Source: Phycisphaerae bacterium SM23_33
GTDB taxonomy: Bacteria; Planctomycetota; Phycisphaerae; SM23-33
DNA length: 34,088 bases
Reading direction: 5' to 3'
NCBI GenBank assembly: GCA_001303665.1
Contig: LJUF01000001.1
Span: 1 to 34,088 of the forward strand
This document shows positions 4,218 through 18,296 of the stretch, piece after piece (position 1 is the stretch's first letter; each line of letters starts with the position of its first letter). The position numbers were made by a program, and so were the translations under genes. The notes under the pieces are model-generated. The model was not told the origin of the DNA. It made no database searches and saw nothing but the letters and a program-made list of their open reading frames with translations.

Positions 4218-4221
4218 ATGT

Positions 4222-4440: not shown

Positions 4441-4466
4441 ATTATCATAGAAAGGAATGCAGTCAT

Positions 4467-5361: not shown

Positions 5362-5365
5362 CAGC

Positions 5366-5535: not shown

Positions 5536-5542
5536 CATGGAA

Positions 5543-5570
5543 AAGGGCTGGCTGAAAAAAGTCAGCCCTT
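5543..5570. terminator. Bidirectional hairpin terminator between convergent units
   Basis: aagggctg (5543-5550) pairs with cagccctt (5563-5570). On the minus strand it lies 2 nt after the connector stop and is followed by TTTTCC. On the plus strand it is followed by TATCATC. The U-tracts are short. Confidence 0.5.
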
Positions 5571-5572
5571 TA

Positions 5573-6244
5573 TCATCTCCTACCAACCGTTGGTTTAACA
5601 TAACGCCCATCTATGAGCAACCTTCTTATGTCAGGGTCTAAAGATTGGCGATATAGTAAAGTTCCCAACTCACTTGAAGCTAAGACATCAGACATAGCGC
5701 TTTGGAAACGTTTATACCACCTGCTCGACTGCATCAGCGCCGCTTCCTTGATGTCGTAAGGCACGCTGGCCGCGAAGCCCCACCTGGCCGTGATGCGGCA
5801 AGTCGGCGCGCCCCTGCTCACGTCCGTCAGCGGCCTGAACCCGCCCTTTGAGGTGTACTTCCCCGAAGTGAAAACCGAATAATCCCCCGTCGGGTCCACC
5901 ATGACCATGTCGTAAGGCGTGCTGTTGAAGTCCGGCGCCTGCGGGTCGCCGGAGCAGGCGATCCAGTCCGCCGCGGCCCAGGCTTCGTAGTCGTCGTCGG
6001 CGGCCGAGTCTTTCACCTCGACCAGGGTGACGGACACGCACTCGTCGATGTAGAGGTACGGCCTGCCCGTCCCGGCGTAGATGCGGGCGCTGGCCGTCGC
6101 GTCGGCCTCGAAACCGTCTGGCCGGTTGCAGGCGCGGTTGATGTTGCGCTCCGCCGCCGCGATGAGCGCCGTCAGCGTGGCGTCGTCCGCCGCGCTGGTC
6201 TTGTCTATGCGGGCGCGTAGCTCGACTGCTGTGGCGTACGCCAT
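5573..6244 (-). CDS. Head-tail connector protein (gp6-like N-terminus, extended)
   Basis: MAYATAVELRARIDKTSAADDATLTALIAAAERNINRACNR is typical of the gp6-like head-tail connector / DNA-packaging family. ATG with GGAGG-N7. At 223 aa it is longer than the usual ~110 aa. Confidence 0.7.
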   Translation of the reverse strand: MAYATAVELRARIDKTSAADDATLTALIAAAERNINRACNRPDGFEADATASARIYAGTGRPYLYIDECVSVTLVEVKDSAADDDYEAWAAADWIACSGDPQAPDFNSTPYDMVMVDPTGDYSVFTSGKYTSKGGFRPLTDVSRGAPTCRITARWGFAASVPYDIKEAALMQSSRWYKRFQSAMSDVLASSELGTLLYRQSLDPDIRRLLIDGRYVKPTVGRR

Positions 6245-6256
6245 GTCGTGTCCCTC

Positions 6257-7186
6257 CTAGCGGTGCTCCCCGTACCACTGCACCGTCTTGCGCAGGCCCT
6301 CCAGCAAGGGCGTCCTGGCCTCCCACCCGATGGCGGCCTTGGCCCGGCTGGAGTCCAGCACGCGCCGGGGCTGGCCGTCCGGCCTGGACGTGTCCCATTT
6401 CACGCCGCCCTCGAAGCCCGTCGCGCCCTGGACGTAGTGGACGAGGGCGTCGATGCGCACCTCCTGCCCGCTGCCCAAATTCAGGGGCTCCGGCCTGTCG
6501 TACCTCTCGGCGGCCAGCACCAGCCCCTCGGCGGCGTCTTCGACGTACAAAAAGTCCCGTGACGGCTTGCCCGTGCCCCACACGACGATGTGGTCCTCGC
6601 CCCGCTCCCTGGCCTCGACGCACTTGCGGACGAGCGCCGGGACGACGTGGCTGGTCTCCAGGTCGAAGTTGTCGCGCGGCCCGTACAGGTTCGTCGGCAA
6701 CAGGTATATGCCGTTCATGCCATACTGCTCCCGGTACGCCTGCAATTGCACCAGGAGCATCTTCTTGGCCAGTCCGTAAGGGGCGTTGGTCGGGTCGGGG
6801 TAGCCGGACCACAACGCTTCTTCCCTCTGTTTGTACTCAGCCCGCGGATAAGCACAAACTGTCCCAACTTGGACGAACTTCTCGACGCCGTTCAGCCGGG
6901 CCTGCTCGACGAGCTGGATGCCCATGACGGCGTTCTCGTAAAACAACGTGCCGGGAGACTCTTTATTCAGCCCAATGCCACCCACTACCGCCGCCAGGTG
7001 GAACAGCACGTCCACCGGTCCCGCGTCCAGGAACATCTCAGAGACGCCCGACGGGTAACGCAGGTCGTACCGCGCCGACCGGGGCACGAAGGGCTCGCAG
7101 CCCTCCGCCTTCAGCCTGTCGCAGAGGTGGGAACCAAGGAACCCTGCCCCACCCGTCACGACGACGTTTTTGCCTCTCCAGTCCAT
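6257..7186 (-). CDS. GDP-L-fucose synthase-like NAD(P)-dependent epimerase/reductase (SDR)
   Basis: VVVTGGAGFLGSHL Rossmann motif and YGLAKK (YxxxK). NLYGPRDNFDLETSHVVPALVRK and WGTGKPSRDFLYVEDAAEG resemble Fcl/WcaG signatures. Confidence 0.7.
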   Translation of the reverse strand: MDWRGKNVVVTGGAGFLGSHLCDRLKAEGCEPFVPRSARYDLRYPSGVSEMFLDAGPVDVLFHLAAVVGGIGLNKESPGTLFYENAVMGIQLVEQARLNGVEKFVQVGTVCAYPRAEYKQREEALWSGYPDPTNAPYGLAKKMLLVQLQAYREQYGMNGIYLLPTNLYGPRDNFDLETSHVVPALVRKCVEARERGEDHIVVWGTGKPSRDFLYVEDAAEGLVLAAERYDRPEPLNLGSGQEVRIDALVHYVQGATGFEGGVKWDTSRPDGQPRRVLDSSRAKAAIGWEARTPLLEGLRKTVQWYGEHR

Positions 7187-7722
7187 CGAAATACCCCCAG
7201 CCTCGGATGCACCTCAATCGGTTTCCCCAGGAGCTCGTTGGCCGCCTGGGAAACGCCTATCTGCCCCTCGTCCTCCCCCGTGTAGTCGTGCAGGCAAACG
7301 TAGCCCTCGACGTGCGGCAGCCAGGCCAGCAGGTCGGCCTTGACTTTGTCGTAGAAGTGAGAGGCGTCGTGGAACAGCAGGCTCACCTTCGGCCCCCGCC
7401 AGTCCAGCCCCGCCCGCGTCGAGTCGCTCTTGACGATCCTGACCCATTGGCCCAGGCCCAGGCGCTCGACGTTGGCCTTGGTCGAGTCGAAGTCGGGCGT
7501 CACGTAGCCGGGGTTGGCCGGGTCGAAGTCGTCCACGCCGTAGACGACCTTGTCCGTGCCCTGGCAGGCCAGGGCCAGGGCGCACAGGCTGCGCCCCTGG
7601 CAGACGCCCAGCTCCACGACGACCGCGCCGCCCGGCAGGGCGGCCACCAGGCGCTGCAAGTATCCCAGTTCCAGGCCCATCGTCTGGCCGCTGACCGACT
7701 CCCAAGCATCAGGATGTTGCAC
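7156..7722 (-). CDS. Class I SAM-dependent methyltransferase
   Basis: VVELGVCQGRS motif I, then LLFHDASH...AWLPHVEGYVCLHDY. Paralog of 18574..19098. GTG start with GGAGGA SD. Confidence 0.65.
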   Translation of the reverse strand: MQHPDAWESVSGQTMGLELGYLQRLVAALPGGAVVVELGVCQGRSLCALALACQGTDKVVYGVDDFDPANPGYVTPDFDSTKANVERLGLGQWVRIVKSDSTRAGLDWRGPKVSLLFHDASHFYDKVKADLLAWLPHVEGYVCLHDYTGEDEGQIGVSQAANELLGKPIEVHPRLGVFRWTGEAKTSS

Positions 7723-8248
7723 CGGCCTTCCTCCAAAACGTCGCTTGCCAAGGGTAATCGTTGTACGGCCCCGGCCCGAAGAAGCAGCGTTCCCCCCAAC
7801 CGGATACGTCGAAATGCTCCAAGTAATAAGCCCGATCCGAGTTGTCCAATACCAGCCAGCCGCCCGGTTTGACCTTGGCCTTGGCGTGGCGCAGGCACGA
7901 CGGCCTGGCCCTGCCGTCCACGAAGACCAGGTCGAACGGCTCGAAATCGTCTATGGCCGAGGCGTAGCGCCTGAAATTCTTGCCCGGATAGGATTCGCTG
8001 TAATAATGCTCCGGCTTGGCGGGGTCCGTCCCCAACTCGCCGTCTTCGGGAGGGATGAAAAGAGCCGTGACGTTTTCCAGGTCGGGCTGAAGCTCCCCGT
8101 GCTCGTGCTCGACGGTGACCACCGAAGCTACCCTCTCGGCGAAATAGACGGTGCTGCCGCCGGAGCCCCACTCGAAGACGCGCATGTCCGGCGTCAAAAT
8201 GCTGTCCAAGAACTCTTGGGCGACGTAAGGAATCCAAGGAACGGCCAT
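7709..8248 (-). CDS. Class I SAM-dependent methyltransferase-like protein
   Basis: VFEWGSGGSTVYFA (motif I-like) and DLVFVDGRAR. ATG 8248 overlaps the upstream stop (TGATG). Confidence 0.55.
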   Translation of the reverse strand: MAVPWIPYVAQEFLDSILTPDMRVFEWGSGGSTVYFAERVASVVTVEHEHGELQPDLENVTALFIPPEDGELGTDPAKPEHYYSESYPGKNFRRYASAIDDFEPFDLVFVDGRARPSCLRHAKAKVKPGGWLVLDNSDRAYYLEHFDVSGWGERCFFGPGPYNDYPWQATFWRKAGATS

Positions 8249-8865
8249 CACGCCTTCTCGAAAATGTACGTCGCTTGGGGATGCTCCGTCCAATACTCCC
8301 GCCAAACCGCGCTCAACCCCCGCTCCTCGTAGAAGTTCAGCAGTTCCCGCTCATTGTGGACGTGGGTGTACGTCGGCTGGCCGGGGTAGCCGGTCGTGTC
8401 GTTGCGCACGGTCGGCCCCCCGTGGACGCGGACGCGGTGCAAGACGAGCTTGCCTGTCAGTGTTTGACATAATGCCTCACTACCCCTGGCCCAATCGTCC
8501 ATGACCTCTATGAGACTGGAGGCCAGCACCACGTCGTGTCCGGCGTAGTCGTGGCCCACCATGTCGGCCACGAAGAACTCGCGCCCTGGCCACAGCCTTC
8601 TGGCCTCGTCCACCATATGAGGCGAGAAGTCGAAACCGGTATACCGGACGCGGGGATAGCGCCGGGCCAGGACCTCCGAGTAATGTCCCACCCCGCAACC
8701 GGCGTCCAAGAGGGTCGCCGCCCCGCCCAGTCGCTCCATCGCCCTCAGGAAATACTTGAACGGCGGGTGGGTCTCCCAATCCGGCTTGGCCAGGTCCTCC
8801 AGGGCCAGCGCCCCCATCGCCTCCGCCACCCCCGCGTCCAGCCAACTCTTGTAAGGGTCTACCAT
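8248..8865 (-). CDS. Class I SAM-dependent methyltransferase (Methyltransf_11/25-like)
   Basis: LLDAGCGVGHYS motif I, followed by YTGFDFSPHMV and VVLASSLIEV. Confidence 0.75.
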   Translation of the reverse strand: MVDPYKSWLDAGVAEAMGALALEDLAKPDWETHPPFKYFLRAMERLGGAATLLDAGCGVGHYSEVLARRYPRVRYTGFDFSPHMVDEARRLWPGREFFVADMVGHDYAGHDVVLASSLIEVMDDWARGSEALCQTLTGKLVLHRVRVHGGPTVRNDTTGYPGQPTYTHVHNERELLNFYEERGLSAVWREYWTEHPQATYIFEKA

Positions 8866-9695
8866 TTCGACTGCGCCCCCCTGATGGCCGCCACGTAAGG
8901 CTTATAAACGTGCTCGCGCTGCCAACCGCTCACCTCGTAGGTGCTGGGGTACATCTGATTCTCTCCCTGGAAACCGTGATAGTGCCACCACAGGAGCGGC
9001 TCGCCGCCCACGCGGACCTGGCCGTCCTCGACGGAATACCTGCGGTGCTCCGCATTCCACGGGGCGCGGTTGGCCCCTGGGTGCTGAATGGCGTGGACGT
9101 GCCACCGCTTCTCAAGAACGCTGTCCCAGTATTTCTGGTCGCAGAATCTCTCTGGGTGGTCGGGCTCGTGCCGGAGGTAGCACCATTCTAGGCAGAGCCG
9201 CCGCCACTCCCCGATGCAGGCCAGCCCGTCGTCGTCTCTCTTGGCGTGGACCAGGCCGACGTTGTACTTGCCGTTGCGCTCGAACCCCTTCAGCCTGGGC
9301 GGGAAGTCGTGCGGCGTGATGGCCAGGGAACGGCCGCCTATCTCTTGGAAAACCGGCTCCGGATCGGCGAAGAACATGATGTCGGCGTCCAGGTAGTTGA
9401 CGTGGTCCACCGGGCCGTTCCTGAGCACGAACAGCATCCAGCCGGGCGTGCAAGTCCAGTAGAACTCCCGCAGGCTCCTGGTGGCTCGCGCGGCCCGCAG
9501 CGCGTCGTCCTCGAAGCTGGCCATGCCGATGATGCTGACGTTCGGCAAGGCCAACTTGACCAGGCCGTTCACGACGGCGTCGTCGAGGGCCAGGACCCAC
9601 AGGTGGTATTCCGGGCAATGGCGCTCCAGCGACTCCCACAGAACATAGCCTTTGTGACGGTAGGCCCAGTCGAAGTAAGTGCAAAAGTACCTCAA
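8859..9695 (-). CDS. Glycosyltransferase, GT-A fold (GT8-like, DXD)
   Basis: YLDADIMFF DXD motif, YNVGLV, and CDQKYW. The likely start is TTG 9695 (GAGGAG-N6) overlapping the upstream stop as TTGA. The ORF track maximum is 9773. Confidence 0.6.
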   Translation of the reverse strand: MRYFCTYFDWAYRHKGYVLWESLERHCPEYHLWVLALDDAVVNGLVKLALPNVSIIGMASFEDDALRAARATRSLREFYWTCTPGWMLFVLRNGPVDHVNYLDADIMFFADPEPVFQEIGGRSLAITPHDFPPRLKGFERNGKYNVGLVHAKRDDDGLACIGEWRRLCLEWCYLRHEPDHPERFCDQKYWDSVLEKRWHVHAIQHPGANRAPWNAEHRRYSVEDGQVRVGGEPLLWWHYHGFQGENQMYPSTYEVSGWQREHVYKPYVAAIRGAQSKW

Positions 9696-10321
9696 CCTAA
9701 ACTCCTCGCGTACTCTAAATCGCCTGGGGTATTGACGTTCACCGCATGGCCCTGGGTGAGAACAAGCTGGCAACCTATAAACCCGAATGTCGCACTGAGC
9801 TCAGTGAATTTTGAAATCGTAGGAATTCTATCTAGCGTCGGCCTGGATAGGTGAGCTACCCCACCAAACGAAAAACCTCTTGGGTCTGGAGGTGTTGCGA
9901 CACTGGCCCTGACCGCAACACCCTCTTCAAAATACAGGCGTGTCCCCCGCCCATCGTATGGTTTCACAACGGCCACAGAATCTGGCTTGTCCAGAACGCA
10001 CTGCACTACTTCATTACTGATGAACATGTCAGCATAGGTCATTACTAAACTCTTCTCAAGTGGGAACATCTGTGATGCAAGATGAAGTGAGTACAGGCTG
10101 CCTGTCTCAAAATATTGACTGTTAAACACGTACGCCGCCCTAACCGCTTGCATGACCATCGTGGCTCGATAGCCCACGACAATAACTACATCAAGGCTAT
10201 TTCCCTTGAGAATGCGAATCTGTCTCTCAAGTATGGATTCATCCCCGACCTTCAACAACGACTTGGGCAGGGGGAATCCCATGCGTTCCCCCTTGCCAGC
10301 GGCAAGCACGATGGCCTTCAT
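9692..10321 (-). CDS. Nucleotidyltransferase (LicC/PntC/sugar-1-P NTP-transferase class)
   Basis: MKAIVLAAGKGERMGFPLPKSLL is the GXGXR signature of the NTP_transferase family. ATG 10321 forms an ATGA overlap with the upstream stop. About 45% GC. Confidence 0.7.
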   Translation of the reverse strand: MKAIVLAAGKGERMGFPLPKSLLKVGDESILERQIRILKGNSLDVVIVVGYRATMVMQAVRAAYVFNSQYFETGSLYSLHLASQMFPLEKSLVMTYADMFISNEVVQCVLDKPDSVAVVKPYDGRGTRLYFEEGVAVRASVATPPDPRGFSFGGVAHLSRPTLDRIPTISKFTELSATFGFIGCQLVLTQGHAVNVNTPGDLEYARSLG

Positions 10322-11037
10322 CTGTGCGACTTGCACCTCCTGCAAATGTCAAGGAATCTGTCGCCAACCGAAAGCCGGTTGTACGTCTCCCGAACCCGTG
10401 AAGAAAACAGAATCTCCTCAAGCGTCCCGTCAGTGAGGCTCCCGAAAGTGTGGCGGTACTTCCAATCCATGCAGCAAAGTCCGACCTCGGCGTCCCGCGT
10501 GATGACGACTTGGCCCAGCGGTGCCCGACACGGAACGTTGCGATCCACATACGGTGCCGCATAAATCTTCAACCTGTCGTCCAAGCCCCCGCGATCCATG
10601 TAAGTGACGCCCGGCCAATCCCTGGCCTCCACGTCGCCGTACAGAGTCACGACGATGTGGTTCACCCCCGCCTCCATAAGCTCTTGGGCCAGACCCCGTG
10701 TCAGGTAGTGCCCGTTAGTCTCGATAATGACCTGTGACTCCGGGCAACAGTCTTTAGCCTTGCCTATGAACAGAAACAGGCGCGGGTCAATCAGGGGCTC
10801 GTTGTATTGGTTGAAATAAATCTTGCCGCCATAGCCGTACTTCCCCAGCGTCTTAAGAACGCCATATACCGTTTCCATAGAGATGATCTTGGGCTCCCTG
10901 ACCCGCCAGGTCGAAGCCATTTCCAGATGCAACGGACATTTCTTGTGAAGCCACGAATACTGGCACAGGTTCGACAGCTCTATGGCGACGCCGGTCGTGA
11001 ACTCGAAGGGATTCACAGAACCCTCGCCCTGAGCCAT
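10318..11037 (-). CDS. Radical SAM/SPASM-like protein with non-canonical N-terminal Cys motif
   Basis: Radical-SAM-like core blocks (IELSNLC, YNEPLIDP, IIETNGHYL, IVVTLYG) and a C-terminal SPASM/twitch-like Cys pattern (CRAPLG...GLCC...CRRC). Where CxxxCxxC is expected it has only CQYSWLHKKC. Confidence 0.5.
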   Translation of the reverse strand: MAQGEGSVNPFEFTTGVAIELSNLCQYSWLHKKCPLHLEMASTWRVREPKIISMETVYGVLKTLGKYGYGGKIYFNQYNEPLIDPRLFLFIGKAKDCCPESQVIIETNGHYLTRGLAQELMEAGVNHIVVTLYGDVEARDWPGVTYMDRGGLDDRLKIYAAPYVDRNVPCRAPLGQVVITRDAEVGLCCMDWKYRHTFGSLTDGTLEEILFSSRVRETYNRLSVGDRFLDICRRCKSHR

Positions 11038-11756
11038 CGGCTCGTCAAGTCAAGCGACAGGACTACGAACAAGATGATGCAGATGATCATGCTCGTCTTG
11101 CCATAGTCGAACAATCCCATAGAGGCTGTCAATTCCAGCCCCAATCCACCCGCTCCGGCCACGCCCAGCAACGTGGCCTGCCGGAAACTGGACTCGAAAC
11201 GGTAGAGCAGGAAGGACAACGCGGCGTTGGCTTGCGCTGGCAGAAAGATGTATACGTAGCCTTGAAACTTGTTCGCGCCGTCTATGGCGGCGGCGTCCAT
11301 GATCTCCGGCTCCGTCGCTTCCAGATTCTCGGACAGTAGCTTCCCAAGCACGCCGCCGGAATAAATCCACACGCCCATTATCCCGGCGAGCGAGCCGAGC
11401 CCGACGGCGGCCACGAAAAGGATGCCCAGGATCATGGCGGGGATACTGCGCATGGCAAGCAGCATGGTCCGCCCGCACAGGTACACAATCCAGTTCTGCG
11501 TCATGTTCCAACTGGCCGCCCATGCCAGTGGGATTGCCGAGAGAAAACCCAGCGTCGTGCCGAACAGCGCGATCTTCGCCGTCTGCCAAAGCGCCGGCAG
11601 GAGACCGGGCAACGCCCGGAAATCGGGGGGCCACAGCTTGGACAGATACCGCAGTATCCTCGGCATCCCCGTGCATATCTCGAACGCATCCCCGCTGAAT
11701 ATCATGGCGGCAAGGAGCAAGATAGTAAGCCATGAAAGGAATCGGGCCGCGGTCAT
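11013..11756 (-). CDS. phnE: PhnE-like ABC transporter permease (phosphonate/phosphite family)
   Basis: Multi-TM protein with RSIPAMILGILFVAAVGLGSLAGIMG, GKLLSENLEA and AAAIDGANKF blocks resembling PhnE. ATGA overlap with phnD. Confidence 0.65.
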   Translation of the reverse strand: MTAARFLSWLTILLLAAMIFSGDAFEICTGMPRILRYLSKLWPPDFRALPGLLPALWQTAKIALFGTTLGFLSAIPLAWAASWNMTQNWIVYLCGRTMLLAMRSIPAMILGILFVAAVGLGSLAGIMGVWIYSGGVLGKLLSENLEATEPEIMDAAAIDGANKFQGYVYIFLPAQANAALSFLLYRFESSFRQATLLGVAGAGGLGLELTASMGLFDYGKTSMIICIILFVVLSLDLTSRWLRARVL

Positions 11757-12601
11757 TCAACCAAGCCCTCTTCCATCAGGACGCGGACGTAGTCGTAGTC
11801 GGAATCTGCCCCTGGCACGAACCCCTTGACTTGGTCGCACCCGGCGAACGCTTCATCTGAAAGGCTGAGCAATGCATTTCTAACACGTTCTTTCAGTCTG
11901 GAATCCATGTCCGCCCTGACTCCCCAGCAATTCATGGGAATGGGCGGCGTGGTCGCCAAAATCACAAAGTCCTCGCCCGGCACCCCCGCCCCCTGGCTGA
12001 CGGCCAGATTGGTCCGCCAGTCGTTCGTGCCGCCAGCGTCCACGCTGCCCGCGACGACAGCCTCCAGCACGGCTGGGTGGCTACCGAGAAACCCATACTC
12101 GGCCAAGTCATCCAACTCAATGCCATTCTCCTTCATGTTGACCACGTTGGACAGGTAACCAGACGTGGAGCCGATGTCGGGGAAGGCCATCGTCTTACCC
12201 TTGAGTTGGTTGAATGTGAACGGTTCGTCCCAGATACCGGGGCGACCGATGATGATGCCGTGACACTCGGCGATGCCCTCCGGGTTGATCTCTCTCACCA
12301 AGGGCTCAACGCCGATCTGCTCATGAGCCTGGATATAGGGCATCCCACCCAGGCGGGCCATGTCCGCCGTGCCGTTGGCCAGTGCCTCGACCACGGCTGC
12401 GTATTCCGTCGTAGTCTGCATCTCTACGTCCACGCCTAGTTTTTCCTCCAGCTCTGCGATGACGCCGCCATAAGCGGCTATGGCCGTAGCCGAATCAATG
12501 CCCGGCGCGGGCGAGAACACAATACGAAGCGTCTCTCTCCGCGTTGGCGCACATGCGGCCAACACCAGGACCAGCAATACAAAGGATTTCCTAAAATTCA
12601 T
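11753..12601 (-). CDS. phnD: PhnD-like substrate-binding lipoprotein (phosphonate/phosphite ABC family)
   Basis: Lipobox signal (LVLAAC), RIVFSP, YAAVVEALANGTADMARLG, and PDIGSTSGYL, all typical of the Phosphonate-bd family. Confidence 0.65.
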   Translation of the reverse strand: MNFRKSFVLLVLVLAACAPTRRETLRIVFSPAPGIDSATAIAAYGGVIAELEEKLGVDVEMQTTTEYAAVVEALANGTADMARLGGMPYIQAHEQIGVEPLVREINPEGIAECHGIIIGRPGIWDEPFTFNQLKGKTMAFPDIGSTSGYLSNVVNMKENGIELDDLAEYGFLGSHPAVLEAVVAGSVDAGGTNDWRTNLAVSQGAGVPGEDFVILATTPPIPMNCWGVRADMDSRLKERVRNALLSLSDEAFAGCDQVKGFVPGADSDYDYVRVLMEEGLVE

Positions 12602-13229
12602 AACCGAACCTCCTTATCAATTCCCCGTCCATCCGGGCCACCAACGCCTTGCTTTCTTCGTTGTAATACTCTTGGTATGGATGCACTGCTTCCCAACGTG
12701 TGCGCTTTAAGTTGGGATCCGGGTGCCTGTCAACCCTGGCAGTGCCGACACTTCTTATAATTTGATCCGCTTCCTCCGCTGTGACCAAGTCTGGCACGAT
12801 GCCGACTTTGGCAAAGACCGGGACGATACCGCTATACCAGTCTTCCATACGCACGATGTAATCCGCCTTGTCGGCCTGCATCATTTCCCAATAGATGGTC
12901 AGCGACACACACGAGCCGTGGCGTTTTTGCGAAACCAATTTCACATATTCATTGAAGTCCCCCTGAAAATGCGTGTAATCAACGACGCGAACCCACGACC
13001 AGAAGGCGACGTACCATGACCACGGATTGCGTATGAAGGCGATGGCTGGCGGGACCAGCAACCCGCGACTGGTGTACGTCTCAGCTAAATGCTTGTAAGC
13101 CAAATGTTTTGCCTTCACAGCCCCTATCGGCTTTAATCCATGCTTTCGCAACTCTCTCAGGATGCGATCAAAAGCAGTTCCGCCGCATCGCGTCACATGA
13201 AGGTGTATCAGTCTATCGTGCGTGGGCAT
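12591..13229 (-). CDS. Sulfotransferase family protein (paralog 1)
   Basis: HLHVTRCGGTAF (5'-PSB-like P-loop) and FIRNPWSWYVAFW (3'-PB-like RNPxxRxxS class). ATG 13229 aligns with the paralog's start (MPTHDRL versus MLTDRL). C-terminal YYNEES...IRRFGYEF is shared with the paralog. Confidence 0.65.
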   Translation of the reverse strand: MPTHDRLIHLHVTRCGGTAFDRILRELRKHGLKPIGAVKAKHLAYKHLAETYTSRGLLVPPAIAFIRNPWSWYVAFWSWVRVVDYTHFQGDFNEYVKLVSQKRHGSCVSLTIYWEMMQADKADYIVRMEDWYSGIVPVFAKVGIVPDLVTAEEADQIIRSVGTARVDRHPDPNLKRTRWEAVHPYQEYYNEESKALVARMDGELIRRFGYEF

Positions 13230-13251
13230 TTCGGCGTTGAGGTCGTTGTAT

Positions 13252-13905
13252 TCAATCAAAGGTGTACCCAAAACCTTTTATTATAATCTCGTCCCACTCT
13301 TCCACCCAACGGCGGTTTTCTTCGGTGTAATATCTTTTGTAGTCGCCGGGCGGCTCTCCTTCGGGCGTCAATGCGGGGCGATAATGCCACTCTTGCGAGA
13401 TAAAATACCTGACGATCTCCTCGGCGGTCATTCGCTCGACGGGTCCCTGGCCGCAGGCGTCGTAAACGGCCATGACGTTGTCTCTTGCATACTTCAATAC
13501 AATGCGGACGATCTCATCGAATAGATTCTCGAACCGGATAACGTCATCGGCGTCATTCGCTCCCAGCCACTCCATTAGGCACCACGTCTGGGTACGAAAG
13601 TCCGGAAACCTTTCGCCTCTTCGTACCTCCTCCAGATATTCACTGAAGCTGCCAAAAAAACAGGTCATGGGGTGGCCCCTCACACGGCACCATCGCTCCA
13701 CGTACCATTCCCACGGATTGCGGACGATGGTTACCGCTGGCGGCATTGATATGCCAAGTTGCCTGACAAGAACCTTATACTCATCATAGGTTCCATGTTC
13801 CGGGTCGGCATAAATCAATATCCCCGGCAATCTTCTGAGAACCCCTGTCAAGACCTTCCCGCCTGAGCGTGGCGGACGCAGGACAGCCAATCGGTCAGTC
13901 AGCAT
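13252..13905 (-). CDS. Sulfotransferase family protein (paralog 2)
   Basis: LRPPRSGGKV, IVRNPWEWYVERW, and YYTEENRRWVEEWDEIIIKGFGYTF. Clearly paralogous to 12591..13229. Confidence 0.6.
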   Translation of the reverse strand: MLTDRLAVLRPPRSGGKVLTGVLRRLPGILIYADPEHGTYDEYKVLVRQLGISMPPAVTIVRNPWEWYVERWCRVRGHPMTCFFGSFSEYLEEVRRGERFPDFRTQTWCLMEWLGANDADDVIRFENLFDEIVRIVLKYARDNVMAVYDACGQGPVERMTAEEIVRYFISQEWHYRPALTPEGEPPGDYKRYYTEENRRWVEEWDEIIIKGFGYTFD

Positions 13906-15067
13906 CTTTCACCAAGCACCGCCCGTCCACCTTGTATCCCTCTCGGAGCAACTTCTCACAAAGCGAAGCCAAACCGAAATGGCCCCACCACGTCCCGAAG
14001 CAGACGGTGTCTTGCAAGGCTGCATTTGGGGCGATTTCTTGGCCGTACCATGACGAGGAATAGTCGCGCTGCATCTGGGCCTGAAGCTGAGACGAAAGCG
14101 TCCTGAGTCTCCACCCGTGTTCTCCGAACTGCGGATTGCGGACTTTGGCCACTTCCGGCGCAACTCTTTTCAGGATTTGATGGCGATAGGACCCAACCTG
14201 CGATTCCTGTTGGCCCAGCCCGTATTCATGCAGGACGCGGATCATATCGGGGACCAAGTAGGGAAACACCCATTCCCCCTTGACGGGGGCGAAAAAGTAA
14301 GGGTGATAAGGCAGGACGCGAAACACCCAGTCCAGCCCAGGGCCGTTGACCAGCGCATGCGTCACGTCGTTGGCGAGGTAGCCGGAAAAACATTGCAGCT
14401 CGCCGTCGTCTTCAGGGATGAGGCCCTCCTCCTGGAGGTAGTCAACAGGATCGTACCAATAATTGAAACACCTGGCCCACAGGCCCCCGTTCTGCCGCTT
14501 CCACGCGTCCTCGAAGCGGCACGATCTGGCATGGTGATTCTCAAACAGCGGCTTTACGCCGCCCCCGTAAACCGCGAACTTGGAGCGTTCCCATCCCTCC
14601 GCTTCCAGTGCCATCCGTGAGTGCCTGTGCTCCCCCTCCACCTCCACGAACAGTATTTCGCCCAGCCATTCCGGGCCGTTCTTTTCAAATAGTTTCCTGA
14701 TCGTGTGAGAAATCAGGCGGCTGTCGTAGCCCCCGGAGTGCAAGACGACATGAAATCGCCCCGGCGTCCAGGCTCCCTCCACCACACCCACGAAGGCATC
14801 ATAGAGTAGGTCCAAGAACTTTCCTCTACCGATTTTTTTCCTGTCCGGCGGGTCGGCGGCCAGCGCCTCCATCTCCTCGCCCCACGTCGCCTCCGGGGGC
14901 ATCATGTCGATCTCGCGGAACATCGTCTTGCAATGCCGCTGCCTGGGGTCGACGCCGTAGCCGGTCTCGTAAATCCGAAAGTACGGCTCCCTTCTGAGAG
15001 TCAGCACGTCCGGCAGTATCTCGTGGATCCAGGGCGATTGCCCAACGCTACTCTTGAATAGATTCAT
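13895..15067 (-). CDS. PP-loop ATP-pyrophosphatase superfamily protein (asparagine-synthetase-like domain)
   Basis: VVLHSGGYDSRLIS matches the SGGxDS PP-loop. ATG 15067 (MNLFKSS) follows the upstream stop by 2 nt. The N-terminal 123 codons of the track ORF are Arg/Gly junk. Confidence 0.55.
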   Translation of the reverse strand: MNLFKSSVGQSPWIHEILPDVLTLRREPYFRIYETGYGVDPRQRHCKTMFREIDMMPPEATWGEEMEALAADPPDRKKIGRGKFLDLLYDAFVGVVEGAWTPGRFHVVLHSGGYDSRLISHTIRKLFEKNGPEWLGEILFVEVEGEHRHSRMALEAEGWERSKFAVYGGGVKPLFENHHARSCRFEDAWKRQNGGLWARCFNYWYDPVDYLQEEGLIPEDDGELQCFSGYLANDVTHALVNGPGLDWVFRVLPYHPYFFAPVKGEWVFPYLVPDMIRVLHEYGLGQQESQVGSYRHQILKRVAPEVAKVRNPQFGEHGWRLRTLSSQLQAQMQRDYSSSWYGQEIAPNAALQDTVCFGTWWGHFGLASLCEKLLREGYKVDGRCLVKDAD

Positions 15068-15069
15068 AA

Positions 15070-15984
15070 CTATCCCAACTTCCCCAAGTAATGCGCGAAC
15101 GTCCCCGGTATGGCCTCCTTGCGGAAATACTCCAGCCACACCCACCGGGCCTCCTCGCCGTGCGCCCGCAACTGCGCGTCGGTGTGGGTATCCAAAATCT
15201 GCTTGACGCGTTCGTTCATGACCGGCGCGTCGCTCTCCGGGAAGACGAACATGAATTTGCTGTAATCCACGAAGTCCTCGAAGGGCAGCTCGTACTCGTC
15301 TCCCATCCAGACGGGCGGCCTCCCTGCGCTCATGGCCTCCCAAGTCCGGTAGGCGTCCAGCTCGACCCCTCGCGGGCTGAGCGCCAGCTTGCTCTGCGCG
15401 AAGGCGTTGACGAACTCTTCCCGGCGCTCCCGCCACTGCTCCGTACCTTCGGGGATGTAGCCGAAGAAGTCGTCATAAAAGCGCATGAGGGACTTGATGG
15501 ACTTGTCATCGGCCACGGCGTGGCAGGCCCGACGCCGCACGTCGCAGGCCCCGTCCCTGCCGACGAAGCAGACGTCGTAAGGCAGCGTGCCGAAGTCCGC
15601 CGGTTCCGGCTCGAAATCGTCCACGAAATGGGGCACGCTGACCGTCAGCGGGTTGGGGTCCCTGCGCGACTTCACGGCGCGGAACAGGACCGACGGCAAA
15701 CCCCAGTCGTCCGAGCACGCGCTGTAGTCGTGGAAGAACCAGCGGTGCTCGTTGCCCCGGTAGTCCGGCAGGGACTGGACGAACGAGCGGACGTATTCCG
15801 CCCCGCCGCCGTGCCCGCCCCCGCTGTCCCACCAGATGAGGCCGAGGTCGACCGGGGTGTAGAGCCAGTCGGCCCCGTCCGGGCCGGGGACGAACTCGAA
15901 ATGCTCTCCCGTCCCTGGGTTGTCCAGCAGGATGTCGCGCTTGGCCCTGGGGTGGTTGGTCAGGCAGGCGTGGACTTTGATCAC
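15070..15984 (-). CDS. Exostosin-like glycosyltransferase (GT47-like), paralog A
   Basis: LALSPRGVELDAYRTWEAMSAGRPPVWM fits the exostosin C-terminal signature. GTG 15984 forms a GTGA overlap with the upstream stop. Paralog of 16200..17087. Confidence 0.65.
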   Translation of the reverse strand: MIKVHACLTNHPRAKRDILLDNPGTGEHFEFVPGPDGADWLYTPVDLGLIWWDSGGGHGGGAEYVRSFVQSLPDYRGNEHRWFFHDYSACSDDWGLPSVLFRAVKSRRDPNPLTVSVPHFVDDFEPEPADFGTLPYDVCFVGRDGACDVRRRACHAVADDKSIKSLMRFYDDFFGYIPEGTEQWRERREEFVNAFAQSKLALSPRGVELDAYRTWEAMSAGRPPVWMGDEYELPFEDFVDYSKFMFVFPESDAPVMNERVKQILDTHTDAQLRAHGEEARWVWLEYFRKEAIPGTFAHYLGKLG

Positions 15985-16190
15985 AGCGCTCTCTTTTTTA
16001 CATCCTTCCGTGGCCTTAGCTTGAGACATTCCGGGCAAGTCACGTTGTGCCAATAGGCGCTGTGCGCCACCCGTGTCCCCGGCAACCCGCACGCAGTGTT
16101 CCAATTGAAGCCCTTCAGAGGTTGCCGCGATGCGGGCCAGACCCAAAAATGAATTACACCCTTCTCCCCAGCACGTTCGCCAAAACCCAT
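15981..16190 (-). CDS. Small Cys/His protein (possible zinc ribbon), unknown function
   Basis: 69 aa with protein-like composition (HFWVWPASRQPLKGFNWNTACGLPGTRVAHSAYWHNVTCPECLK). ATG start. It exactly fills the gap between the two GT47-like genes. Lower GC. Confidence 0.5.
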   Translation of the reverse strand: MGFGERAGEKGVIHFWVWPASRQPLKGFNWNTACGLPGTRVAHSAYWHNVTCPECLKLRPRKDVKKRAL

Positions 16191-16199
16191 CTCGGCCCC

Positions 16200-17087
16200 C
16201 TATAACATTTCCTCCAAATACCTCAACACCATGTCGTCCCACCTGGCCGGGGCCAGCCAGTCCGCCCAGGCCCGCCGCGCCCTGTGCGCCATTTCCCGCA
16301 TACAGGACTGCGGGCGGCAACGTTCGTTGATGGCCATGATCTCCCCGGCCACAGACGCGGCCCTGGCCTCCGGCACTTGAAAGGAGCAGGCATCCCAGTC
16401 CACGTATTCGGGCATGGGCAGCGCGTAGTCGTCGGCCAAGACGACGGGGATGCGGCCCGCGCTCATAGCCTCGAACAGCCGGTAAGAGTGCTGGCCCGCG
16501 CCCCTGGGGGCCAGCACCAGCCTGGACTGCTTCAGCGCGTCTATGAAAATCTGCCTGCGCTGGTCCCCCTCCGGCGTGCCCTCGTAGCGGCCCCAGTGCC
16601 TATTGACGGTGTCCAGGTAGCAGTTCAGTCCGGGGCAGGCCCTCAGCGAGTCCAGGCAGCGCCGCCGGACGCCCAGCGGGTCATGGTCCAGGCCGACGAA
16701 GCAGACGTGGTACAAAAGCTGCTCGTAGTCCATCCCGGCCAGCCGCCCGAAGTCGTCCACCGCCGGGGGCCAAGGGACCACGTTGGGGTCGCGGCGGCGC
16801 TTGTCCACCGACTGCCTGAAGACGACGGCCTGCGTCCCGATAGGGGCGTCCTCGTCCGAGTGCATCCACAGGACGTGTCGGCGCTCGTGCTTCTCCCAGG
16901 TCGGCAGCCTGGCCAGTGTGGGCAGCACGCCTCCCACTCGCTGGGGGTGCCTGCGCTCCACGTCGCCCAGCTCGACCAGGACCACGAAAGCGTCGGCCTC
17001 GGCGGGGTTCTCCGTATATTCGAGCGTGGTCGGCCTGGCCACGGGTCGGGCGGGAACGTCCAGTTCGGTATAGGCGTAGACTTTCAC
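16200..17087 (-). CDS. Exostosin-like glycosyltransferase (GT47-like), paralog B
   Basis: LVLAPRGAGQHSYRLFEAMSAGRIPVVL, with HVCFVG as in paralog A (DVCFVG). Confidence 0.65.
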   Translation of the reverse strand: MKVYAYTELDVPARPVARPTTLEYTENPAEADAFVVLVELGDVERRHPQRVGGVLPTLARLPTWEKHERRHVLWMHSDEDAPIGTQAVVFRQSVDKRRRDPNVVPWPPAVDDFGRLAGMDYEQLLYHVCFVGLDHDPLGVRRRCLDSLRACPGLNCYLDTVNRHWGRYEGTPEGDQRRQIFIDALKQSRLVLAPRGAGQHSYRLFEAMSAGRIPVVLADDYALPMPEYVDWDACSFQVPEARAASVAGEIMAINERCRPQSCMREMAHRARRAWADWLAPARWDDMVLRYLEEML

Positions 17088-17416
17088 GTGTAATCGTCCT
17101 CGTCAAAGTGCTCCGACGCCAGCACGAGGCACAGGGCGTCGGGGCTGAAGTTCTCCAATGTGCGGCGGGCCGTCGGCTTGACATAAAGCCCCGTCCGGGG
17201 CGAATCCAGCCGGTGGCGCTCCTCGTCCACCACCACGTCGAGGCGGCCCCGCAAGGCCACCATCACCATCCGGCAGGTCTTCATGGCGTGCCCGCCCCGC
17301 GTCTCGCCGGGCGGGACGTTTTCGATCCAGAACGCCCGCTTGACGTCGAAGGGGAGCTCGCACACCGTCAGGCCGCCCCGGTGGTCGGGATAGGTCATGA
17401 ATTCAATGATCGGCAA
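17084..17416 (-). CDS. FdtA/WxcM-like cupin (NDP-4-keto-6-deoxyhexose 3,4-ketoisomerase family)
   Basis: DHRGGLTVCELPFDVKRAFWI...TRGGHAMK...LYVKP...ALCLVLASEHFDEDDY follows the FdtA pattern, except that HAM replaces the usual HAH. TTG 17416 has GGAGG-N6. The alternative start is ATG 17398. Confidence 0.6.
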   Translation of the reverse strand: MPIIEFMTYPDHRGGLTVCELPFDVKRAFWIENVPPGETRGGHAMKTCRMVMVALRGRLDVVVDEERHRLDSPRTGLYVKPTARRTLENFSPDALCLVLASEHFDEDDYT

Positions 17417-18275
17417 GCTCGGCCTCCAATTTCCGCCTCAACTGCGGCAGCCTCTTCTCTATGGCCGGGGGGTGCGGGCGGTCGAATGGCCCGGTGCGGC
17501 ACGGCCCCCGCGTCTCCGGCAAGAAGTCGTGGCAGCCGTTCCACCGGTCCTCTATGGCCCGCCTCTCGGCGTCGCTTCCCCGGACCCACGGGAGATACAC
17601 TTGCTCGAAATAGCCGGGGATGCACCTTCCGGGGGCGACAGACTCCCGGTAGTATTCCGTCTTGGCCTTGACCTGCGACGGCCACACGTAAGAGTAATGC
17701 GGCATCCCGGCGAAGAAGGCCAGGTGGTCGTGCTCCCGCCAGGGGCGATGTTCCGGCCCGGAGGAAAGGACCGTCGGCGGGCGATGAGTCTGCCAGTTCG
17801 CGCCGGGATACCACCGCTGTACCCGGTGGAACTCGAACCCCTGCTCGAAGGAGCCCTCGCCGAAAATCCTGTCGAACCCGCCGAAGAAAGCCCAACTCCT
17901 GAAGCTGATCGAGTCCCAACGCCCCGTCTCCAAGACCTCGATCACCTTCTCGATGGTCTCCGGGTAATGGACCTCGTCCGAGTCGACGTGGAAGACGAAG
18001 TCCGCGTCGGGGCGGATCAGGGCTCCGTAGGCGCGGCACATCTCGTCTTTCTCCGACCATGGGCCATGGATCATCTGAATCTTCCCGTCCGGGTCGGGGA
18101 AGTCCCTGATGGTCTCCACCGTGCCGTCCGTGGACTCGGTGAACCCTTTTTGGACGAAATAGCCGACCGGCCCCTCGGTGACGACGATCTGCGACGCATA
18201 GGGGTAGATGGTTTCCAGGCAGGCGTCGAGAACGTAATTGCCGTTGAAGACGATCATGCCGAAGGCGATGTTCAT
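17403..18275 (-). CDS. Glycosyltransferase, GT-A fold (GT2-like)
   Basis: N-terminal MNIAFGMIVFNGNYVLDACLETI and HVDSDEV (DXD) are typical of family-2-like transferases. Confidence 0.55.
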   Translation of the reverse strand: MNIAFGMIVFNGNYVLDACLETIYPYASQIVVTEGPVGYFVQKGFTESTDGTVETIRDFPDPDGKIQMIHGPWSEKDEMCRAYGALIRPDADFVFHVDSDEVHYPETIEKVIEVLETGRWDSISFRSWAFFGGFDRIFGEGSFEQGFEFHRVQRWYPGANWQTHRPPTVLSSGPEHRPWREHDHLAFFAGMPHYSYVWPSQVKAKTEYYRESVAPGRCIPGYFEQVYLPWVRGSDAERRAIEDRWNGCHDFLPETRGPCRTGPFDRPHPPAIEKRLPQLRRKLEAELADH

Positions 18276-18296
18276 TTTACTTCCCCATCTCTTGCC

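Follow-up and report, generated by a model that had tools for sequence, protein, structure and literature searches.

A phage structural operon that encodes the binding protein and the permease of a phosphonate-family ABC importer raises the question of what this pair could be doing there, among genes for glycan modification. We addressed this question in a window of 34,088 nt (positions 1 to 34,088 of contig LJUF01000001.1, assembly GCA_001303665.1, Phycisphaerae bacterium SM23_33), which comes from phosphorus-cycling sediment of a sulfate-methane transition zone.

Layout and composition of the glycan-modification island

The island, ~17 kb in length (5573..22524, minus strand), sits between the major capsid protein gene (23052-24380) and the head-tail and tail genes, and its Pfam contents include GT2, two GT47-like genes, FdtA, an epimerase/dehydratase and several methyltransferases. 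The flanking structural genes, recognised with Pfam and PHROGs, are those of terminase, portal, protease, capsid and tape measure. The importer pair belongs to a block of six ORFs, and our ORF check recovered all six on the minus strand as the preliminary description had given them. They encode a nucleotidyltransferase (NT) of the NTP_transf_3 superfamily with a GXGXR...PK motif (9692..10345), a SPASM/rSAM-like protein (10318..11037), a PhnE-type ABC permease of 247 aa (11013..11756), a substrate-binding lipoprotein (SBP) of 282 aa from the PhnD/PtxB/HtxB (PhnT) family (11753..12601), and two sulfotransferase-fold proteins, paralog 2 (226 aa, 12591..13271) and paralog 1 (217 aa, 13252..13905).

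The genes on either side of the block are likewise on the minus strand. Directly downstream of the NT lies a GT8-like GT-A glycosyltransferase with the DxD motif YLDAD (8859..9695), whose AF2 model (pLDDT 97) has glycogenin, LARGE1, LgtC and WbbM as its best Foldseek matches (E about 1e-9); some of its homologs carry PF03407. It is followed by a SAM-dependent methyltransferase (8248..8865; Pfam Methyltransf_25/11/12/23). On the other side, a 390-aa ORF (13895..15067) contains a PP-loop-like SGGYDS motif, read from the translation; it has no Pfam, NCBIfam or PDB match, and tblastn did not find it in the related phage contigs L007 and L008.

An assembly artefact at the block boundaries can be ruled out, as six independent assemblies from different samples (NCBI GCA_001302675.1, Logan, three from ENA, and JGI SMTZ1) match the window at 99.9-100% over 9-18 kb across both edges. 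The block had been described as a low-GC module at 45% against 67%. The dip is real and its size was overstated: GC is 55.6% in the block, 65.0% in the left flank and 63.6% in the right flank, and 45% is reached by a single 200-bp window (10001-10200). By gene, GC is 50.9% in the NT, 51-53% in the two sulfotransferase-like genes and 59-60% in PhnD and PhnE. The block is the lowest-GC 4.2-kb stretch within the island; just 2.5% of all windows of that size have a GC this low, with only the 25.4-29.8 kb region lower.

The further proposal, that the block was acquired as a separate module bounded at 9690 and 13905, did not hold up. The lowered GC3 is shared by the ORF at 13895..15067 (GC3 0.66), so that 13905 is not a compositional boundary, and the GT8-like and methyltransferase genes outside the block are conserved together with it in L007 and L008. 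The GT8-like gene directly follows the NT in both contigs, and also in L099 (tblastn and contig lookup); the methyltransferase (49% identity in L007, 38% in L008) keeps its position after it. Moreover, PhnD-PhnE GC stays near 54-60% in phage backgrounds of 50% and 65% alike.

Identities of the block proteins

The SBP has the lipobox LAAC and matches Pfam Phosphonate-bd (1.5e-53) and TIGR01098 (score 125, cut-off 112), and it falls below the cut-off of the TIGR03431 PhnD equivalog (124 vs 261). Its closest solved structure is Te_PtxB (5JVB, 2.4e-30). The permease passes the TIGR01097 cut-off (220.1 bits vs 216.7) and also matches Pfam BPD_transp_1. Together these matches confirm that both proteins belong to the phosphonate/phosphite ABC family, as first read from the sequence. 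PhnD-type SBPs span phosphite, methylphosphonate, AEP and glycerol-1/3-phosphate as ligands (PMC5700983, PMC12718374). The oxyanion ligands Y67, S145-T146-S147 and H175 are retained in the window SBP, and the STS-H residues are invariant. The phosphite caps Y208/D22 are replaced by N224/G34, and the E. coli AEP residues D205/E177 by N224/W195. The phosph(on)ate oxygen ligands are thus kept, but the site has lost the Tyr/Asp cap by which PtxB is limited to phosphite. The window SBP has C113 where every relative has the phosphonate-binding Tyr, indicating that this copy may bind more weakly or may bind something different.

The PhnE start overlaps the PhnD stop (ATGA), and the EAA loop of PhnE, which couples to the ATPase, is intact and is better conserved among phage and cellular copies than any other segment. 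In agreement with the preliminary description, no ABC ATPase is encoded in the 34 kb window: the sole Walker A motif in six frames is that of the large terminase, there is no LSGGQ signature, and PhnC queries found no match at E<=1 (tblastn). The same motif scan found both Walker A and LSGGQ in every cellular PhnC that served as a positive control. The DNA covered is 34 kb for this phage and at most about 20 kb for each related contig, and an ATPase could lie elsewhere in the phage.

The gene callers start the NT at 10321 (209 aa). It matches Pfam NTP_transf_3 (2.2e-17), and its top PDB match is LicC (1JYK), at 1.4e-8 with the single sequence and 7.3e-17 with a profile of the phage family. The next PDB matches to this profile are at 4e-12 to 1e-11, and PntC (6PD1) is at 9.6e-9; IPCT is also among the best NT matches. 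A LicC-like N..Y..(T)..YSL.L segment is present and conserved across the phage copies. The NT meets no NCBIfam cut-off, all scores being far below, with archaeal GlmU and IPCT among these sub-cut-off matches, and AglF, MurU and RmlA among those of related NTs. Its AF2 model is poor (pLDDT 64), and Foldseek ranks GlmU and RmlA on top, with LicC outside the top 50. The proposed LicC/PntC class is borne out in that LicC is the best solved relative, although no family cut-off is passed and the low-confidence model could not tell LicC or PntC apart from GlmU or RmlA; the assignment is best read as a nearest-neighbour statement from sequence.

The calls for the remaining proteins stand at the superfamily level. 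The rSAM-like protein, a BtrN-like twitch/SPASM protein, matches Pfam SPASM (8.7e-9) and BtrN (4M7T, 1.5e-13), with Radical_SAM at 21.6 bits under a cut-off of 29.5 and a non-canonical N-terminal motif, C25-x5-H31-x2-C34. The L007 and L008 copies, which occupy a different place within the island, keep CX5HX2C and the auxiliary-cluster cysteines C170, C188/189, C232 and C235. The two sulfotransferase-fold paralogs share 31% identity (E 1e-20) and one family profile (A3), which matches sulfotransferases in the PDB (SULT4A1, 1.9e-8); Pfam Sulfotransfer_2 is matched by 11 of the 52 family members, and paralog 2 by itself has no Pfam match. Paralog 2 retains the P-loop Arg and the catalytic His56, with the 3'-phosphate-binding Ser changed to Ala; in paralog 1 this Ser is changed to Glu.

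Recurrence in phages and complete cellular counterparts

PhnD-PhnE pairs lacking an ATPase were found in the window, L099 (80% identity), L007, L008/L009, L010, L011, and twice in L097, and the ATPase is absent from 8/8 pairs of this phage clade. Each pair adjoins an NTP_transf_3 nucleotidyltransferase or sits one gene from it, and all lie within islands of glycosyltransferase and methyltransferase genes; in the window, L008 and L011, capsid or portal genes are close by. At least six divergent phage glycosylation islands share this arrangement. Relative to the window copy, SBP identity is 46-64% in L007-L011 and falls to about 36%, and the PhnD-PhnE junction nevertheless stays tight, the two genes being always kept together with translational coupling. 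Between the window and L099, PhnD (80%) and PhnE (91%; pN 0.057, pS 0.62) are the two best-conserved genes of the cassette, with pS values of 0.62-0.75 that are saturated. PhnD-PhnE is under strong purifying selection across phage lineages.

Among cellular PhnD+PhnE loci, 39/40 have an ABC ATPase within 7 kb, the lone exception lying at a contig end; the genome scan also showed several cellular PhnD-like proteins with no permease or ATPase in the vicinity. By pairwise distance, the SBPs nearest to those of the phages are cellular SBPs associated with an NT; a neighbour-joining tree does not recover the two groups as sisters. A cellular NT adjoining PhnDCE has PntC (6PD1) and LicC as its top PDB matches. 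Complete PhnD-PhnC-PhnE loci beside transferases occur in metagenome-assembled genomes of Chloroflexota and Methanosarcinales. L015 (Chloroflexota) encodes LicD, two NTs, PhnD-PhnC-PhnE, a third NT, glycosyltransferases and AglB; L029 (Chloroflexi) has a TagF-like gene and a sulfatase-family gene beside NT-PhnDCE-NT; and L018 (Methanosarcinales) combines NT-PhnDCE-NT with a CDP-alcohol phosphatidyltransferase and a B12-rSAM. A further locus, L016, has the order NT-PhnDCE-methyltransferase. One phage, L098, carries a complete set (TagF-like, PhnD, PhnC, PhnE, NT, second TagF-like) directly upstream of its prohead protease and SU10 capsid genes.

LicD, TagF-like and CDP-alcohol transferases were not found by tblastn in the window, L007, L008, L011 or L097, and L010 has one weak TagF-like match (E 3e-5) over an N-terminal GT4-like region. 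This agrees with the earlier failure to identify a LicD-like transferase in the window, where the conserved neighbor of the NT is the GT8-like sugar transferase. The earlier idea of import, activation as a nucleotide (NMP/NDP) conjugate and transfer gains strong comparative support from the recurrent phage pairs and from the complete PhnDCE loci with transferases.

A salvage-and-decorate reading and its alternatives

We consider it somewhat better than an even chance (about 0.55) that the block represents a reduced form, carried by a phage, of a cellular salvage-and-decorate cassette that combines import, activation and transfer to a glycan. The lic pathway of Haemophilus and Streptococcus pneumoniae, which decorates surfaces with phosphocholine, consists of the importer LicB, the kinase LicA, the cytidylyltransferase LicC and the transferase LicD. 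The steps proposed for the phage would resemble it in proceeding from uptake of a head-group precursor through CTP activation by a LicC-type enzyme to a surface glycan; of the solved structures, LicC is nearest to the phage NT, and the cellular counterpart L015 carries LicD. In contrast to the LicB permease, the phage importer is a PhnD/PhnE-family binding-protein/permease pair. The window also lacks LicD and an ATPase, its presumed target is a phage-built glycan, and the block has no kinase, which fits a substrate already carrying phosphorus. Teichoic acid and other CDP-alcohol systems (TarI/TarJ/TarL, TagD/TagF, IPCT-DIPPS) are comparable in that IPCT is among the best NT matches and complete relatives are flanked by TagF-like glycerophosphotransferase-family genes (L029, L098) or a CDP-alcohol phosphatidyltransferase (L018); there, however, the polyol-phosphate is made inside the cell, whereas the phage cassette has an importer attached and the window has no TagF-like gene.

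The Pnt phosphonate-tailoring pathway (Ppm/Ppd/AEPT plus PntC; Rice et al. 2019, PMC6697681) uses a LicC-like nucleotidyltransferase to activate a small phosphonate, which then decorates a glycan or lipid. For the phage importer a phosphonate is one candidate ligand, and PntC (6PD1) heads the PDB list for the cellular NT by PhnDCE. Pnt makes AEP de novo from PEP, whereas the phage block has an importer, and the window yielded no PEP mutase gene. The PhnCDE, PtxABC, HtxBCD and GpxABCD importers (TC 3.A.1.9) share the SBP and permease families and the STS-His oxyanion site with the phage set, but the latter has no ATPase gene, has neither the PtxB phosphite cap nor the E. coli AEP pair E177/D205, and lies in a glycan island rather than a catabolic or oxidation operon. 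Actinobacteriophage virion glycosylation loci, reportedly described by Freeman et al. in 2023 (see also PMC11256854), place glycosyltransferases inside the structural operon, and in the window they likewise lie between capsid and tail genes of a siphovirus-like module. At about 17 kb, the window island is much larger than those loci, and it contains in addition sulfotransferase-fold genes, an rSAM-like gene, several methyltransferases and half a transporter.

Other explanations have to be weighed. Cyanophage PstS boosts host phosphorus uptake during infection, and PhnD-PhnE could similarly let the host take up more phosphonate or phosphite for making nucleotides, with the NT adjacent by coincidence. 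The family assignments and the phosphorus-cycling sediment fit this, and besides pstS and phoH, viral phnD and phnE are catalogued as phosphorus-cycling auxiliary metabolic genes in a groundwater virome survey (PMC11310336). We regard this as unlikely, given that no C-P lyase, phosphonatase or PtxD occurs in the window or among the Pfam calls of the phage loci, that the phosphite-specific cap is missing, that the pair lies in a late structural/glycosylation operon beside an NT in every lineage, and that the nearest cellular counterparts are in glycan clusters with LicD, TagF-like and CDP-alcohol transferases, not in catabolic phn operons. The systematic loss of phnC, the coupling to an NT and the placement in a glycosylation island set this clade apart from such viral genes and are undescribed in the literature searched, where no paper was found to treat LicD and phnD together.

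Similarly doubtful is that the NT is an ordinary sugar-1-phosphate enzyme feeding the GT8-like transferase, with PhnD-PhnE as passengers or as importers of a sugar or polyol phosphate used as sugar donor. The NCBIfam matches (GlmU NT domain, AglF, MurU, RmlA), the Foldseek ranking and the conserved retaining GT8-like transferase next to the NT would all be expected, but that ranking was built on a pLDDT 64 model, and with the sequence profile LicC scores about 5 orders of magnitude better than any sugar-1-phosphate enzyme. The NT also retains the LicC-like segment. The transferase partners in complete loci use CDP-alcohols, and the order NT-PhnD-(C)-E-NT is kept from Methanosarcinales to phages, which is hard to explain without a functional link. 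Less probable still is a role outside transport, such as signalling, superinfection exclusion, or poisoning or retargeting of a host transporter, by an importer that is inactive without its motor. The consistent lack of an ATPase in the phage clade would agree with this, and the cellular PhnD-like proteins with no permease or ATPase nearby indicate that transport-independent uses of the fold may exist. Yet PhnE, the most conserved gene of the cassette, retains its coupling loop, the STS-H residues are invariant, and joint retention with translational coupling is what a working binding-protein/permease pair predicts.

Under the salvage-and-decorate reading, the membrane-anchored PhnD-family protein and PhnE would bind an organophosphonate or organophosphate that has a sizeable side group and bring it into the cell, and the ligand would not be phosphite. 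The ATPase would be supplied to PhnE in trans, most likely as a host PhnC-like subunit. LicC, PntC and IPCT form CMP- or CDP-conjugates, and the adjacent small NT would likewise join the imported compound to a nucleotide. In the last step, the activated head group would be added to a glycan that the surrounding island builds; judged by gene position alone, this glycan most likely belongs to the virion and not to the host envelope.

Structural module, glycan island and block boundaries

The genes of the window lie nearly all on the minus strand and together form a tailed-phage structural module, comprising the large terminase (31608-33053), an 809-aa portal fused to a Mu-F-like minor head protein domain (29087-31516, minus), a prohead protease (24377-26179), an HK97-type major capsid protein (23052-24380), head-tail connector and adaptor genes (~2.8-6.2 kb) and a tape-measure protein (1-1962). 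Between the capsid and connector genes lies an island of ~17 kb (5573-22524) encoding a GT2 enzyme, two GT47-like enzymes, an FdtA-like isomerase, an NAD-dependent epimerase/dehydratase and at least five methyltransferases, and the block at 9692-13905 sits in the middle of this island. The window has no DNA match among isolated phages, and known phages share no more than 34% identity with its capsid and portal proteins. Neither a prophage copy nor a host was found among GTDB representative genomes, where the highest identity to the substrate-binding protein (SBP) of the block is 42%, in Anaerolineae MAGs. The entire analysis is computational.

Several features lie outside the island or at its edge. 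The lowest GC of the entire window falls between protease and portal (25400-29800; 54.8% over 4.2 kb, 46% at 26501-27000), in a stretch holding just short ORFs without family matches. An HNH endonuclease gene (33059-33823, minus, GC 47.8%) directly adjoins the large terminase; such neighbors are commonly seen in HNH-assisted packaging, which the gene may serve, or it may be a mobile endonuclease. A lone opposite-strand ORF of 216 aa without family match (4711-5361, plus) lies in a low-GC gap with connector/tail genes on either side, and looks like a moron.

The ORFs of the block have the coordinates given in the preliminary description, which had also reported a GC dip and proposed a separately acquired module with edges near 9690 and 13905. 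The dip exists, with other figures: we measured 55.6% GC in the block, 65.0% in the left flank and 63.6% in the right. The block is the lowest-GC 4.2-kb stretch of the island, mainly due to the nucleotidyltransferase (NT) gene (50.9%, GC3 0.54) and two sulfotransferase-like genes (51-53%, GC3 0.62), while the PhnD and PhnE genes have 59-60% GC (GC3 0.72-0.79). Lowered GC3 extends past 13905 into the ORF at 13895-15067 (minus, 390 aa). Searches of Pfam, NCBIfam and PDB left this ORF without a match; it contains an SGGYDS motif resembling the PP-loop of asparagine-synthase-type ATP pyrophosphatases, and it is absent from the related phage contigs L007 and L008.

The two boundaries, for which a check had been proposed, are crossed by six contigs from independent samples and assemblies at 99.9-100% identity, so an assembly artefact is ruled out. 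The proposed edges find no support, because flanking genes are co-conserved with the cassette and the low-GC3 tract overruns 13905; nor is a recent horizontal insertion bounded by 9690 and 13905 supported, given that the 8.2-9.7 kb genes are co-conserved and that PhnD-PhnE keep ~54-60% GC in phages of 50-65% background. The cassette itself looks exchangeable: a close relative, L013, carries another gene in the place upstream of the GT8-like gene, the position of the SPASM gene varies from phage to phage, and the GC of PhnD-PhnE departs from its surroundings (above background in L007 and in another relative, L099, and below it in the window). The lineages have diverged far enough to show that the association itself is old.

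An importer pair with no ATPase in the window

The preliminary description assigned the SBP and the permease to the phosphonate/phosphite ABC family and saw no ATPase in the window, and both statements stand. The SBP (11753-12601) matches PF12974 (Phosphonate-bd) from end to end (1.5e-53; 182.1 bits, cut-off 27) and passes TIGR01098 (125 bits against 112.05), and PhnE (11013-11756) passes the TIGR01097 equivalog (220.1 bits against 216.7). The SBP scores below TIGR03431, the equivalog of the E. coli-type PhnD that binds 2-AEP (124.4 bits against 261.1). NCBIfam hints of the "Selenate/tungsten/DVU_155x" kind were set aside as generic sub-threshold similarity. The SBP has a LAAC lipobox, and the PhnE start overlaps the PhnD stop (ATGA).

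A six-frame motif scan of the 34-kb window found the Walker A motif of the terminase as the sole one and no ABC signature motif; applied to the cellular and phage PhnC controls, the same scan recovers both motifs every time. Searches of the window by tblastn with PhnC queries returned nothing at E<=1. A complete ABC importer is thus not encoded within the 34 kb, as the gene for the nucleotide-binding subunit is missing. The EAA loop of PhnE, through which the ATPase docks and is coupled, is conserved in phage and cellular copies.

We mapped published ligand residues (PMC5700983) onto the SBP using HMMER and MAFFT alignments. Among solved structures it is closest to the phosphite binders Te_PtxB, Pm_PtxB and Ps_PtxB, with HtxB next, and the oxyanion site is kept (Y67, S145-T146-S147 and H175, corresponding to Y55, S130-T131-S132 and H160 of Te_PtxB). 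The Tyr208/Asp22 cap that confines the PtxB pocket to phosphite (PMC5700983) is replaced by N224/G34, a departure from the phosphite binders, and the amine-binding D205/E177 pair of the E. coli AEP protein is replaced by N224/W195, with D194 adjoining W195. Because both the cap and the pair are replaced, the pocket should accommodate a phosphonate or phosphate head carrying a larger side group. Binders of glycerol-1/3-phosphate (GpxB; PMC12718374) belong to the same family, which makes phosphate esters as plausible as phosphonates as the ligand. Codon 113 of the SBP encodes Cys in the window copy only; all relatives, including the 80%-identical L099, have Tyr at this position (Y100 of PtxB), the second Tyr, which in PtxB and PhnD forms a hydrogen bond with an oxygen of the phosph(on)ate.

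Homologs of the SBP led to further phage contigs, of each of which ~20 kb or less is visible, where PhnD is directly followed by PhnE, without an ATPase, in glycosyltransferase/methyltransferase islands. The closest, L099 (80% identical), shares with the window the order ST-like, PhnD, PhnE, SPASM, NT, GT8-like; L007 and L008/L009 are ~63% identical, and L010 and L011 46-50%. The IMG/VR phage contig L097 carries two ATPase-less PhnD-PhnE pairs (4530-6045 and 9995-11511), and none of the best 80 PhnC-like viral loci lies on it. One of its pairs is akin to the type of the cellular loci and of a second IMG/VR phage, L098, and the other to the window type. Structural genes are close to the cassette in two of these contigs, namely a portal gene in L008 and an SU10-type capsid gene in L011. 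In every case an NTP_transf_3 gene adjoins the PhnD-PhnE pair or lies one gene off. L010 and L011 represent the two phage lineages that diverge most, and in both a DUF3307 gene and a gene of metallo-beta-lactamase fold come after PhnE (11610-12823 and 11619-12832, respectively); the latter fold is also that of PhnP, a phosphodiesterase of the C-P lyase pathway.

Synonymous sites are saturated between the window and L099 (pS 0.62-0.75), so that dN/dS is not computable and pN and pS are given instead; PhnE (91% identical) and PhnD (80%) are nevertheless the best-conserved genes of the cassette. In a scan of representative genomes, an ABC ATPase is encoded within 7 kb of 39 of the 40 cellular PhnD+PhnE loci, the exception being at a contig end. 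The conservation of PhnD and PhnE despite saturation, together with this cellular contrast, argues that the loss of phnC is a stable, selected feature of the phage clade and not decay. In a neighbor-joining tree, whose topology is to be taken as tentative, the phage SBPs are monophyletic and are not sister to the SBPs of the NT-associated cellular loci.

The nucleotidyltransferase, its neighbors and complete counterparts

The NT gene (9692-10345) encodes an NTP_transf_3 protein with the signature AAGKGERMG...PK, comparable to the GXG(T/S)RX4-8PK of LicC/PntC-class cytidylyltransferases. Its top PDB match as a single sequence is LicC (1JYK; 1.4e-8), with an alignment of just ~130 N-terminal residues, and a profile of five phage NTs matches LicC at 7.3e-17, the next structures at 4e-12 to 1e-11, and PntC at 9.6e-9. 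Every NCBIfam match is far below cut-off, and those of the window NT mix IPCT and MocA with GlmU-type sugar-1-phosphate enzymes; AglF, MurU and RmlA also appear, all far below their cut-offs, for related phage and cellular NTs. An AF2 model built from just five sequences has a pLDDT of 64, and Foldseek on this model gave no subfamily separation. The LicC/PntC-like assignment offered in the preliminary description can be read as a nearest-neighbor statement only: LicC is the top solved relative by sequence, and no curated model is passed.

The protein at 10318-11037 (minus) is a BtrN-like twitch/SPASM protein (PF13186, 36 bits against 21.5; best PDB match BtrN, 1.5e-13) that keeps four auxiliary-cluster Cys positions. 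It scores below the PF04055 cut-off (21.6 bits against 29.5), and the canonical CxxxCxxC is missing; in its place stands C25-x5-H31-x2-C34. L007 and L008 share this variant, which points to a cluster with a His ligand or to a function independent of SAM. The two sulfotransferase-fold paralogs (12591-13271 and 13252-13905; 31% identical) have no Pfam match when searched singly. At 1.9e-8, a profile of their family picks up solved sulfotransferases (SULT structures), and Sulfotransfer_2 recognizes 11 of the 52 relatives. Both retain the P-loop (5'-PSB) Arg and the catalytic His. Ala or Glu replaces the 3'-PB Ser (consensus RNPWxWYVS) that binds the 3'-phosphate of PAPS, and the paralogs may use a donor other than PAPS.

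LicD, TagF-like enzymes and CDP-alcohol phosphatidyltransferases use CDP-activated alcohols as substrates and transfer a phospho-head group. For a LicD-type or other CDP-alcohol phosphotransferase, PF04991, PF04464 and PF01066 were all without match among the window ORFs scanned, and tblastn searches of the window with LicD, TagF-like and CDP-OH transferase queries were negative. Two candidate LicD-like ORFs were rejected: that at 8859-9695 has a confident model (pLDDT 97) of a GT8-like GT-A sugar transferase, and the alignment of that at 19089-19826, inspected by eye, shows a GT-A-type LLLDDY motif.

Such transferases are present at related loci (L015, L018, L029 and L098). Complete PhnD-PhnC-PhnE sets flanked by related NTs occur in four cellular loci and one phage. 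In a Chloroflexota MAG (L015) the set is accompanied by an ABC-2 exporter pair, LicD, NTs (two upstream, one downstream), glycosyltransferases and AglB/STT3, and in another Chloroflexi locus (L029) by a TagF-like glycerophosphotransferase-family gene and a sulfatase-family gene. In Methanosarcinales (L018) a CDP-alcohol phosphatidyltransferase and a B12-radical-SAM enzyme lie beside it, and a metagenome contig (L016) has an NT upstream and a methyltransferase downstream. In the IMG/VR phage L098, TagF-like genes lie on both sides, and the cassette is directly upstream of prohead protease and SU10 capsid genes. The cellular NT beside PhnDCE has PntC and LicC as top solved relatives, and its similarity to the window NT is detectable (33% over 136 residues). 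These loci present the pattern that would be expected if the importer feeds the NT and the activated product decorates a glycan or lipid.

Two further observations concern these loci. The island of L098 encodes a GT1/GT2 fusion glycosyltransferase split by an intein with a LAGLIDADG endonuclease domain (2368-5697). In L018 (5796-8290) the NT-PhnDCE-NT cassette adjoins the CDP-alcohol phosphatidyltransferase and the B12-binding radical SAM enzyme, and the pairing of NT and B12-radical-SAM enzyme recalls fosfomycin, with its phosphonate methylation on a CMP-conjugate.

A proposed import and head-group pathway

As the most probable mechanism, we propose that the anchored SBP and a PhnE dimer would import an organophosphonate or organophosphate, with the power coming in trans from an ATPase, probably a PhnC-type subunit of the host; that the NT would make a CMP- or CDP-conjugate of the imported compound; and that a transferase would attach the head group to the island-built glycan. 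For import, the trans ATPase and the conjugate, the proposal draws on the families identified, on the synteny and selection observed, and on the loci with complete sets. We infer the coupling of the steps, the ligand, the ATPase partner and the transfer of the head group to the glycan. A monoderm host is suggested by two observations: Chloroflexota contain the nearest cellular relatives, and every phage SBP has a lipid or TM anchor. As the phage has no recognizable LicD, TagF-like or CDP-alcohol transferase, candidates for this activity are a host enzyme, an unassigned island protein or, speculatively, the sulfotransferase-fold paralogs. The latter would use a CMP/CDP-conjugate instead of PAPS, loosely like the PAPS-like donor in Campylobacter MeOPN. 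From the place of the island between capsid and tail genes we infer that the glycan is on the virion, and the host envelope may be an alternative target. A more far-reaching version of the proposal holds that the phage clade carries the specificity half only, borrows a host ATPase, imports an organophosphonate or a polyol/amino-alcohol phosphate, cytidylylates it in LicC-like fashion and produces virions coated with a teichoic-acid-like glycan or phosphonoglycan, the paralogs perhaps being the missing transferases; we consider this version unlikely, with a probability of roughly 15%.

Viral phnD/phnE genes are currently catalogued as phosphorus-acquisition genes (PMC11310336), and a plain phosphorus-scavenging auxiliary metabolic gene (AMG) would be the reading in line with that practice. 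It fits poorly here, as catabolic genes are missing, an NT is a constant neighbor and the cellular relatives lie in glycan clusters. The NT itself may instead be a sugar-1-phosphate enzyme serving the adjacent GT8-like transferase, a reading that the weak subfamily placement of the NT allows, but one that offers no explanation for the conserved NT-PhnD-(C)-E-NT arrangement. A role of PhnD-PhnE other than transport is disfavored by the conservation of both the ligand site and the ATPase-coupling loop.

All component families are known, and the logic of the proposed pathway mirrors the lic and Pnt pathways. In the searchable literature we found no description of an ATPase-less PhnD-PhnE pair conserved across phage lineages, of coupling between PhnD-PhnE and a LicC-like enzyme in phage glycosylation islands, or of a cellular NT-PhnDCE-NT cassette with LicD, TagF-like or CDP-alcohol transferases, and no joint mention of LicD and phnD. 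If the proposed pathway is true, these phages go beyond glycosylating their particles and take up an external building block to decorate their own glycan, by a new route to phosphorus-containing surface decorations; a phage binding protein and permease plugged into a host ATPase would amount to a novel type of virus-host transporter chimera. The cassette of NT-PhnDCE-NT with LicD, TagF-like or CDP-alcohol transferases in Chloroflexota and Methanosarcinales appears to be undescribed in cells, and would tie PhnD-family importers to salvage of glycan or lipid head groups and not to phosphorus nutrition. For this clade, the viral phnD/phnE genes now counted as phosphorus-acquisition AMGs in virome surveys may be misannotated.
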